Below, piece by piece: positions 19,166 to 21,385 of a stretch of DNA of 64,000 nucleotides. Under the pieces are notes generated by a model. It made no database searches and was not told the origin of the DNA. It worked only from the letters and a program-made list of their open reading frames with translations. Origin of the DNA: Escherichia coli (GTDB lineage Bacteria > Pseudomonadota > Gammaproteobacteria > Enterobacterales > Enterobacteriaceae); the NCBI RefSeq assembly GCF_044324875.1, contig NZ_CP172185.1; one strand, written 5' to 3'. Position 1 is the first letter of the stretch. Every line of letters starts with the position of its first letter. The position numbers and the translations under genes are program-made.

Positions 19166-19184
19166 GTGCCAATCCGGTTTGTGG
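19166..19184 (+). repeat. shufflon 19-bp repeat GTGCCAATCCGGTTTGTGG
   Basis: Read from sequence. Confidence 0.8.
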
Positions 19185-19391
19185 CTTGGAGGCAATAAAG
19201 TGAACTATTCTGCCTGTAAATGGTATGAAGCGACCTCCGCACATTTTATCGGTGGCAGAAGCGGAGGCTCTATTTATTACAAGCCGATTCAGTGCCCTGC
19301 CGGGTACGTCATGACAGGTACAAGAATGTACGGCATCGGAGATGGTGTTGATGAAGAGCACGTCGATGCTTACTGTTGCCCTTTTGGTTAG
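19185..19391 (+). other. silent PilV C-terminal segment C
   Basis: In frame with repeat 19166..19184; ORF track 19179..19391. Confidence 0.6.
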
Positions 19392-19427
19392 ATTCCGAGG
19401 GCCGGTATTTAATTTTCTCCCGTTGGC

Positions 19428-19673
19428 TTATTTCTCACAGATTGCTATAGCCTGGAAACAACTCAGGGAGCCAGAGCCAGTAGCAATCCACCGATTGTTT
19501 TTGTAATCAGGGTAACTACCATCTGGTGAGTTGTATCCGTTATGGACCCACTGGGATAACCTGTAGCCGCCGGAGACCAACTTACTCCCCGATGGGCATA
19601 CCGCGTAAGACGATGTCTGAAAGCACCCATTCCCGCCGGATACTGTGAAACGCTCTTTTTTGTCACTGTTTTG
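19428..19673 (-). other. silent PilV C-terminal segment B
   Basis: In frame with repeat 19674..19692 on the minus strand; ORF track 19428..19679. Confidence 0.6.
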
Positions 19674-19692
19674 CCACACACCGGATTGGCAC
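19674..19692 (-). repeat. shufflon 19-bp repeat (inverted)
   Basis: CCACACACCGGATTGGCAC on the plus strand. Confidence 0.8.
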
Positions 19693-19700
19693 TGGCCTCC

Positions 19701-19719
19701 GTGCCAATCCGGTGTGTGG
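19701..19719 (+). repeat. shufflon 19-bp repeat GTGCCAATCCGGTGTGTGG
   Basis: Read from sequence; head-to-head with the 19674..19692 repeat, 8 bp apart. Confidence 0.8.
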
Positions 19720-20091
19720 ATTGGCTTTGAATCCTACCCTGTGGGAAGCCCTATCCCATGGCCATCTGCCACTCCTCCACAAGGCTATCTGTTGATGAAC
19801 GGCCAGTCGTTTTCCTGTTCCCGGTATCCTCAGCTTGCCCGTGCTTATCCTGGCTGTAAATTGCCCGATCTGCGCGGTGTTTTTATCCGTGGCTGGGATA
19901 ACGGGAAGGGACTTGATGGTGATCGGAACAGACAACTCCTGAGTTATCAGGCCGATCAATCAGGCGTCTATCACGAACGTGGCGGATGGCTGAAAGGGCA
20001 TCATAGTGGTATGCCATACTGGGCACAGGGGAGTACCACAGAAATGCGTCCCAAAAATATTGCATTCAACTACATTGTTAAAGCCAGCTAG
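19720..20091 (+). other. silent PilV C-terminal segment A' (ends ...RPKNIAFNYIVKAS)
   Basis: In frame with repeat 19701..19719; ORF track 19645..20091. Confidence 0.6.
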
Positions 20092-20095
20092 GGAC

Positions 20096-21385
20096 TCACA
20101 TCTGATAGGCATACACAGAGAAAACACCGTTACCACAGGCGTAATTTTGTGGTGGTCTGGAGATGATTTGATATGACGCTCCCACTGGCACGGCAAATGA
20201 AATAAATGCTGTCTTTCCGTAGGAGGGGTTATTGCTGGCATTCATACCAATGAAAGCGCCGTTCACATAGCCCTGAAGATTTGATGTGTTGGCGCAATCA
20301 CCGCCACCGGCACCATTTCCACCGGAAGCGTACACAAACAAAGTTCCTCTGCCGTTATTTCTCCCGTTAAATGTTCCCCGGTGAGAACCCAGATTGCTGT
20401 AACTTCCGTCAGGTGCACCAATCGTTCGCCACACACCGGATTGGCACGAAAGTATTGCCCCTTTACTGTCGCGGCCTACAAGTCCGTCCGGTGAGCAGGA
20501 AGTACCTGCGGTGGCTGTTTTTTCCAGCTGTAAATACTCACCCGTGGAAAGACGCCCCTCAGACCGGACAGTTCCACCACTGACTTTTCCTCCTTTGAGC
20601 TCTCCTTCGGTTGTGATCCCTTTGTTGTTAACAGCACGTATCCATTGGCTGTCCGTCATGGTGAAGCCGCCACCATTTGGATGTAACCAACGATTTGATG
20701 TGACATCGCCTGAAAATCTGGCGTTTTTACCACTGGCTTCATTGATATTGGTGATGCTGTTATTATTCATATCAATGCCAGTATGCATTCTGTTTAAATC
20801 GGGTCTTCCCTGAACGCTGTAGCGGTAAAGCCGATCGCTTTCCTCCAGATCTTTTCCAGCCATTCGCATGGCGATATGCCCCTTGTTGCAGGTAATCTGA
20901 TAATTACTTCCCAGATCGGTCCAGCCGCCAAAGGCACCTGTAACGGAATTATTCTGGAGCATAAAACCACCGAGTCCATTAATCTGGCCCGCTATGCGAC
21001 GTAACCCATCTTCTTTAATATCCTGTCCTCCGGTTGTGCAGGTAAGTGCTTCCAGACGACCGGATAAATTATTTTTTCTGATACCGGTAATATAGCTGTG
21101 TCCAAAGGGGGAGCGGGAAAAACCGTTGTTCAGATATCCCTGCTGAATTAATTCATTTACCGTGATGGTTTTACTGGAAAGTGAGCTGGTTTTATCAGCC
21201 ACATAATTCTTTATTGCATTATTATATTCATCAGCATGTAAAGCCGCACTTTGATAAAGTTGTTCATTCAGCCAGTCTTCAATTTCTGAATAAATCATTG
21301 GCGTGGCGATACCAATTACTATCAGGCCTGCCAGAATTTCAAGCAGAATAAAACCTTTATCGTCATCGTGTCTGAATTTTTTCAC
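20096..21385 (-). CDS. pilV: type IVb pilus tip adhesin PilV (constant region plus currently expressed C-terminal segment A)
   Basis: Prepilin-like N-terminus KGFILLEILAGLIVIG; Gly/Asn-rich body; C-terminal ~110 codons lie beyond the first shufflon repeat. Confidence 0.85.
   Translation of the reverse strand: MKKFRHDDDKGFILLEILAGLIVIGIATPMIYSEIEDWLNEQLYQSAALHADEYNNAIKNYVADKTSSLSSKTITVNELIQQGYLNNGFSRSPFGHSYITGIRKNNLSGRLEALTCTTGGQDIKEDGLRRIAGQINGLGGFMLQNNSVTGAFGGWTDLGSNYQITCNKGHIAMRMAGKDLEESDRLYRYSVQGRPDLNRMHTGIDMNNNSITNINEASGKNARFSGDVTSNRWLHPNGGGFTMTDSQWIRAVNNKGITTEGELKGGKVSGGTVRSEGRLSTGEYLQLEKTATAGTSCSPDGLVGRDSKGAILSCQSGVWRTIGAPDGSYSNLGSHRGTFNGRNNGRGTLFVYASGGNGAGGGDCANTSNLQGYVNGAFIGMNASNNPSYGKTAFISFAVPVGASYQIISRPPQNYACGNGVFSVYAYQM
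20429..20447 (-). repeat. shufflon 19-bp repeat at the constant/variable junction of pilV
   Basis: CCACACACCGGATTGGCAC on the plus strand; encodes CQSGVW in pilV. Confidence 0.8.

Follow-up and report, generated by a model that had tools for sequence, protein, structure and literature searches.

A two-segment shufflon at the end of a type IVB pilus operon on a chromosomal pheV island of Escherichia coli

Does a shufflon that resides on a bacterial chromosome still exchange the C-terminal part of the pilus protein PilV, or is it frozen with a single PilV form? This question is raised by a locus in a 64,000-nucleotide stretch of Escherichia coli DNA (contig NZ_CP172185.1 of the RefSeq assembly GCF_044324875.1), referred to below as the window, in which an array of 19-bp repeats lies between the gene for the recombinase Rci and the constant part of pilV. 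The evidence presented here argues that an Rci/sfx shufflon closes a type IVB (thin) pilus operon of the chromosome at its 3' end and is very likely functional. In the nomenclature developed for plasmid R64, the array counts as a two-segment shufflon, one that offers four alternative C-termini. It is a real shufflon that represents an already familiar type of system and involves no new mechanism. The defining features are all found here: the Rci recombinase, its sfx sites, a Shufflon_N-containing pilV with in-frame cassettes, the position at the end of a pil operon, and, judging from the related genomes, probably also inversion.

A pattern search for the repeat GTGCCAATCCGGTKTGTGG returned four perfect matches in alternating orientation, at positions 19166 (+), 19674 (-), 19701 (+), and 20429 (-), exactly where the initial annotation of this sequence had placed them. 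With up to three mismatches allowed, no further sfx-type repeat was detected beyond these four sites, and none of 100 shuffled sequences contained four matches to the pattern. According to the published model (PMC11852207), an sfx site has a 7-bp core between a left arm of 12 bp, which varies, and a right arm of 12 bp, which is conserved. In sfx1 (19166..19184, plus strand), the core GTGCCAA is followed by the right arm TCCGGTTTGTGG with a T at repeat position 14. The same core and right arm are found in sfx2 (19674..19692, minus strand) and sfx3 (19701..19719, plus strand), both recognized by the pattern match and by comparison with the R64 sites, and in sfx4 (20429..20447, minus strand), which is located within pilV; only position 14 varies (T or G). 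The 13 conserved bases, GTGCCAATCCGGT, are the same as in all seven R64 sites. The left arms of the four sites all differ, and those of the back-to-back pair sfx2 and sfx3 have only GCAC in common; the left arm of sfx4, GGCAATACTTTC, is the same as in R64. The 8-bp spacer between the back-to-back sites (19693..19700) is also of the same length as in R64. Together with this spacer, sfx2 and sfx3 make up a perfect 19-bp palindrome (positions 19674-19719) that could form a hairpin and has the same geometry in R64; it was the sole “terminator” flagged in a terminator scan of the region.

The array had initially been described as a four-segment shufflon, and that part of the description has to be revised. 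The four sites bound two invertible segments, X (19185..19673, 489 bp) and Y (19720..20428, 709 bp), each of which carries two convergent cassettes, designated left and right; in the sister islands discussed below, both segments are found in both orientations and at both positions. The claim that each repeat opens an in-frame coding segment, one of which completes pilV, withstood retranslation. Each repeat is read as G-TGC CAA TCC GGT (G/T)TG TGG, encoding CQSG(V/L)W, and all four cassettes are in frame behind their repeats, with lengths, counted from the Cys residue of this motif, of 74 to 129 aa.

The constant region of pilV (20448..21385, minus strand; 312 codons) encodes a prepilin leader (...DKG/FILLE) and the Shufflon_N domain, which was recognized by Pfam in residues 37 to 317 of PilV with E values of 2.6e-51 and 1e-32. 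The complete pilV open reading frame (ORF; 20096-21385, minus strand; 429 aa) reads through sfx4 and ends with the Y-right cassette; the RefSeq annotation already names this gene pilV. NCBIfam returned no family for PilV or for any of the four cassettes, and a PDB search with the constant part of PilV found no relative.

As had been suggested, the cassettes were aligned with the PilV C-termini of R64 (RefSeq record NC_005014). Y-right, the current end of PilV (20096..20446, minus strand; CQSGVW...AYQM, 116 aa), is contiguous with the constant region and shows 65.8% identity to that C-terminus of R64 which the record has fused to pilV. Of the silent cassettes, X-left (19167..19391, plus strand; CQSGLW...CCPFG, 74 aa) shows 82.7% identity to one R64 C-terminus and X-right (19428..19691, minus strand; CQSGVW...AICEK, 87 aa) shows 30% identity to another; the closest counterparts of X-right, with 56 to 57% identity, are cassettes of three- and four-segment relatives. 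Y-left (19702..20091, plus strand; CQSGVW...NYIVKAS, 129 aa) has no counterpart among the R64 C-termini and contains a phage tail-fibre collar domain (Pfam Collar, PF07484; E value of 4e-13). Its best relative of solved structure is the receptor-binding tip of the long tail fibre protein gp37 of phage T4 (PDB 2XGF; E value of 2.8e-20). This match takes in the C-terminal NIAFNYIV motif, and the long needle between the collar and the C-terminus is lacking in the cassette. In sister genomes, orphan copies of Y-left carry the RefSeq label of a “phage tail protein” pseudogene. The view of the array as one expressed and three silent PilV C-termini is borne out both by these homologies and by the natural inversion isomers of the sister islands. 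In junction-specific searches of complete E. coli genomes, contiguous chromosomal fusions of pilV were found with every one of the four cassettes: 9 with Y-right, 10 with Y-left (as in strain APEC E19035), ∼8 with X-left (as in CM2), and 2 with X-right (as in GF43).

The rci gene (17979..19103, minus strand), which encodes the shufflon-specific tyrosine recombinase, is indeed located right beside the array, with its start 62 bp from sfx1. It is intact and encodes a 374-aa protein with a Pfam Phage_integrase domain (E value of 1.4e-22) and 75% identity to R64 Rci over residues 6 to 372, a range that takes in the extension found typically at the C-terminus of shufflon invertases. The catalytic Arg, His-x-x-Arg, His, and Tyr residues lie in the motifs AMRQGE (position 154), HDLRHE (236), SGHRS (261), and KRYTH (270). 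With NCBIfam, this protein gave only Xer/invertase matches, all of them below the threshold. It differs by 1 to 3 residues from the Rci proteins of four sister islands.

In such an arrangement, at two inverted sfx sites, Rci would bind the 7-bp core together with the 12-bp right arm and exchange strands within the core, so that the DNA between the sites would be inverted. By analogy with R64, TP114, and Salmonella Typhi, the asymmetry of the sites would limit the reaction to inversion. The fixed 312-codon part of pilV ends at positions 20429-20447, and the cassette that faces this site is expected to provide the last 70 to 130 residues of the tip adhesin; the other three would stay silent because they have neither a promoter nor a start codon. 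Two segments allow 8 arrangements and 4 PilV isoforms of 387, 400, 429, and 442 aa. The proposal that inversion between any pair of inverted sites swaps the PilV tip is therefore expected to hold for the pairs that include the site at 20429 and to fail for X inverting alone, which would only re-orient silent cassettes; the sites at 19674 and 19701, for their part, stand back-to-back around 8 bp. In R64 and TP114, PilV isoforms are known to differ in binding or in recipient specificity. The same three systems suggest that the PilV isoform at the pilus tip sets what the pilus binds, the difference probably bearing on lipopolysaccharide or surface receptors of mating partners or, alternatively, on self-association and adhesion, and that the switching could take place within a clone of this strain.

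Evidence of inversion came from a survey of 5,426 complete E. coli genomes. The constant part of pilV was found on ∼66 to 72 of these chromosomes, many of them from poultry isolates, and the window region matched 146 chromosomal places; in strain TUM9803, this pilV is present at two chromosomal places. Five E. coli chromosomes carry islands that are at least 99.5% identical to the window, with X and Y in four other arrangements and one deletion derivative. Whereas the window has the arrangement X+Y+, strain GF43 has Y+X+, TUM1886 (in which rci is frameshifted) has X-Y+, APEC E19035 has X+Y-, CM2 has Y-X-, and ECCNB12-2 retains only Y-, X having been lost between two direct sites. The segments of these five islands are 99.9 to 100% identical to X and Y, and the stretches of 266 to 453 bp on either side of the array are 99.6 to 100% identical across the near-identical islands. 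Together with the window, these islands display 5 of the 8 possible arrangements, and the re-ordering among them requires single inversions after a group inversion. As a result of their segment arrangements, the PilV proteins annotated in the sister islands are 400, 429, 442, 442, and 387 aa long. The T/G base at repeat position 14, the sole variable base among the sites, always travels with the X-left end of segment X; this puts the crossover on the 5' side of position 14, in the left and conserved portion of the site, as is also the case in R64, and agrees with an exchange within the 7-bp core.

What looks like the strongest case for inversion is provided by the strains G8, G6/7, and G1/2 from the faeces of healthy humans in Germany, which carry a sister two-segment shufflon that is ∼90% identical to that of the window. 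In these three strains, 10.2 kb of flanking DNA and both segments are 100.000% identical, yet the segments are found in three arrangements, with PilV lengths of 398, 400, and 387 aa; the four different right arms of this shufflon travel with the segment ends. Other related chromosomal islands contain from 1 to 4 segments, exemplified by ECCNB12-2 with one, TUM1887 with three, and EC17CM6 with four; in EC17CM6, the cassettes are frameshifted or truncated and PilV is shortened. Taken together, the genome comparisons indicate that inversion, group inversion, and one deletion have evidently taken place recently in the lineage of this element, and the shufflon of the window appears to be active and switching now.

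Several observations weigh against a functional switch in this strain. The inversion data come from comparing assembled genomes rather than reads from one culture, and complete assemblies give a single consensus isomer and can mis-assemble shufflons. A promoter scan upstream of rci found no convincing sigma-70 promoter. Some of the sister islands are decaying, as seen in the frameshifted rci of TUM1886 and the truncated cassettes of EC17CM6. Finally, classical recipient choice for self-transfer is uncertain because no conjugative secretion system is annotated on the island.

The lack of a promoter-like site upstream of rci and the decay in the relatives would fit a frozen relic, in which the architecture is intact, Rci is unexpressed or inactive, and PilV is fixed at 429 aa. 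A precedent is the inactive chromosomal shufflon documented in Salmonella Paratyphi C (Tam et al. 2004). We consider such a relic improbable, given that rci is full length, that its product has every catalytic motif and is 1 to 3 residues away from the Rci proteins of differently arranged islands, that the four sites are perfect, that all cassettes are open and, measured against their plasmid homologues, of full length, and that switching of the sister shufflon is seen between strains whose flanks are identical. A very remote alternative is that the arrangements seen in public genomes are not products of Rci at all and reflect either assembly artefacts or RecA-mediated recombination, be it between the 19-bp repeats or with the shufflons of co-resident plasmids. 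Every rearrangement breakpoint coincides exactly with an sfx site, with the right-arm variants carried along; long reads easily span segments of 449 to 709 bp; RecA does not recombine repeats as short as 19 bp efficiently; and an assembler that picked different isomers would itself imply mixed populations. What can be said for this alternative is that shufflons are known to be hard to assemble (PMC5430464), that many of the strains also hold I-complex plasmids with 99% identical segments, and that homologous recombination does act in this region, as seen from mosaic boundaries that lie off the sfx sites.

These boundaries, at 19396 and ∼20671, became apparent in comparisons of the window with plasmids of the I complex. 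The region 15641-19396, which includes traF, the traE-like gene, rci, sfx1, and X-left, shows 96.9% DNA identity to the IncK2/Z plasmid pBOKZ_020007, as opposed to ∼80% for pilV and 70 to 73% for the other pil genes. Segment Y and the last ∼225 bp of the constant part of pilV (19720-20671) match many I-complex plasmids at 99% identity or more, and at the protein level the Y cassettes, the collar cassette among them, are 98 to 99% identical to those of pBOKZ_020007. In some strains (among them ECCNB12-2, GF43, and TUM9803), I-complex plasmid copies coexist with the chromosomal island. Since neither boundary is at an sfx site, the mosaic was likely generated by ordinary homologous recombination between plasmid and chromosomal copies, and Rci-mediated cassette exchange was set aside as its origin. 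Segment X is a chimera: in the relatives, X-left is paired with another cassette (...LPGAGI). It is conceivable, if doubtful, that the shufflons of the chromosome and of co-resident I-complex plasmids constitute one recombining pool, with cassettes moving between the replicons. The Rci proteins of plasmid and island would then act on each other's sites, which have the same 13-nt conserved sequence. Should this be true, the chromosome would serve as a reservoir of pilus tips, including the T4 gp37-type collar, that could give plasmids and islands a new range of mating or adhesion.

The shufflon is located at the distal end of a type IVB thin-pilus operon, with the genes from pilL-like through pilU (pilU, pilT, pilS, pilR, pilQ, pilP, pilO, pilN, pilM, and pilL-like; 21382..30539, minus strand) upstream of it on the same strand; all of these genes are open, and their names follow from the ORFs and from the RefSeq annotation of GF43. 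On the other side, rci is adjoined by a traE-like gene (16945..17766, minus strand; 273 aa), assigned from the matching plasmid gene annotated as TraE and from synteny with R64, and by a traF-like gene (15641..16843, minus strand; 400 aa), which is so named by RefSeq in the near-identical GF43 island and shows 72.6% DNA identity to traF of R64. Between the pil operon and a tRNA-Phe gene, the island encodes its mobility genes, a UvrD-type helicase, a TraI-domain protein, and an integrase (31337..35510, plus strand). The tRNA-Phe gene (35715..35790, minus strand), the attachment site of the island, is the only tRNA gene found by ARAGORN in the window and can be identified as pheV because its neighbours are yqgA, speC, nupG, and mltC. 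The chromosomal setting next to pheV had also been noted initially; the island is indeed a pheV island, with the tRNA gene ∼14 kb from pilV, and the chromosomal location as such is not new.

To the left of traF, the island contains pseudogenes, toxin-antitoxin remnants, a type III restriction-modification system, and an insertion of the IS21 family. The restriction-modification system (7269-12223) consists of an endonuclease (7269-10184, minus strand; NCBIfam PRK15483, 1074 bits) and a methyltransferase (10187-12223, minus strand). The IS21-family element (1683-4321; istA, 1804-3450; istB, 3224-4222) lies between 7-bp direct repeats GCTTCAG and is not found in the otherwise 99 to 99.9% identical GF43 island, where the insertion point falls within a coding sequence annotated in RefSeq as the antirestriction protein ArdA. 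In GF43, to the left of where the window starts, the far end of the island does not adjoin the usual pheV neighbours; it abuts a gene for type B ribosomal protein L31, which points to either a rearrangement of the chromosome or another left junction.

A conjugative secretion system and a coupling protein, which belong to the conserved backbone of the ICEEc2/pKLC102-PAGI-2 family, are not annotated in the ∼37-kb island of GF43 and were not recognized among the window ORFs of at least 150 aa, no dedicated profile search having been made. In the absence of such an annotated system, the island, in which the integrase, the TraI-domain protein, and the UvrD-type helicase adjoin pheV and the pil operon is carried alongside, looks, on the basis of annotation, like a reduced or mobilisable relative of the integrative and conjugative elements (ICEs) found at pheU and pheV in E. 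coli. By analogy, the shufflon could be involved in recipient choice in liquid mating, by the island or by co-resident plasmids, or in aggregation and adhesion, as in S. Typhi. A genuine, if tentative, possibility is that the same switch serves a purpose other than the island's own transfer, with the PilV tip tuning self-aggregation or adhesion to host or biofilm surfaces, or working for co-resident plasmids. The annotated island has no mating-pair-formation genes, the shufflon of S. Typhi governs pilus-mediated self-association, and one of the cassettes is a collar of the phage receptor-binding type, all of which would suit such a purpose; the pheV/pheU ICEs, on the other side, do drive DNA transfer (PMC13127887).

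Whichever the purpose, the functional shufflon favoured here indicates that multi-segment shufflons are not limited to IncI-type plasmids, being found in a two-segment form on an E. coli pheV island. A chromosomal Rci shufflon has already been known from Salmonella pathogenicity island 7 (SPI-7) of S. Typhi. In the literature searched, which did not extend to the original ICEEc2 paper, no account of an E. coli pheV/pheU island with a multi-segment shufflon was found; a paper on E. coli W was set aside because it deals with a plasmid that has no shufflon. The locus matters for genome assembly and typing because this region will differ between otherwise identical genomes, and it bears on how pheV/pheU elements and co-resident plasmids choose their partners or surfaces.

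Among the known systems, the shufflon of the IncI1 plasmids R64 and ColIb-P9 consists of Rci, seven sfx sites, and four segments that encode the PilV variants A, A', B, B', C, C', and D'. The initial annotation had called the architecture of the window classic for R64. The gene order (traF-traE-rci-shufflon-pilV...pilL) and the anatomy of the sites do match: Rci is 75% identical, the 13-nt site sequence, the pilV-side left arm, and the 8-bp back-to-back spacing are shared, and two of the window cassettes are clear homologues of R64 C-termini (83% and 66%). Compared with R64, the window has fewer segments (two against four) and fewer sites (four against seven), lacks a nested direct-repeat site, and holds its shufflon on the chromosome, with a collar cassette that has no counterpart in R64. 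With DNA identity of only 66 to 74%, R64 is also not the nearest relative. That place is taken by the shufflons of IncB/O/K/Z (I-complex) plasmids, such as pBOKZ_020007, with DNA identity of up to 97 to 99%. The pBOKZ_020007 shufflon has three segments and six sites, stands beside an I-type conjugation system, and lacks the chimeric segment X of the window.

Among chromosomal systems, SPI-7 is likewise an island, and it sits at a tRNA-Phe gene. As described, it contains a type IVB pil operon that ends in pilV and rci, with 19-bp inverted repeats; it has a single invertible segment with two sites and two PilV forms, compared to two segments and four forms in the window, where, in addition, plasmid-type traE and traF genes adjoin rci. 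The ICEEc2-type elements of E. coli, again judged from their description, share integration at the tRNA-Phe genes pheU and pheV, and ICEEc2 uses its type IV pilus in transfer. Roche et al. are said to have described, in 2010, a trio of DNA-mobility genes in ICEEc2, for which the helicase, TraI-domain protein, and integrase of the window would be counterparts.

The Gin system of phage Mu and the Cin system of phage P1 follow the same logic, in that the C-terminal part of a fibre protein, which binds the receptor, is exchanged by inversion, and one of the PilV cassettes of the window is itself homologous to the collar of phage tail fibres. Gin and Cin are serine invertases that work with an enhancer and Fis on a single segment, as opposed to the tyrosine recombinase and multiple sites of the window. 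The collar cassette is common in E. coli I-complex plasmids and chromosomal islands, and a survey (Milman et al. 2023, PMC9881135) named the fusion of PilV with a phage tail collar as a new target of inversion; as described there, that locus likewise combines a Shufflon_N constant part with an invertible PF07484 collar alternative.

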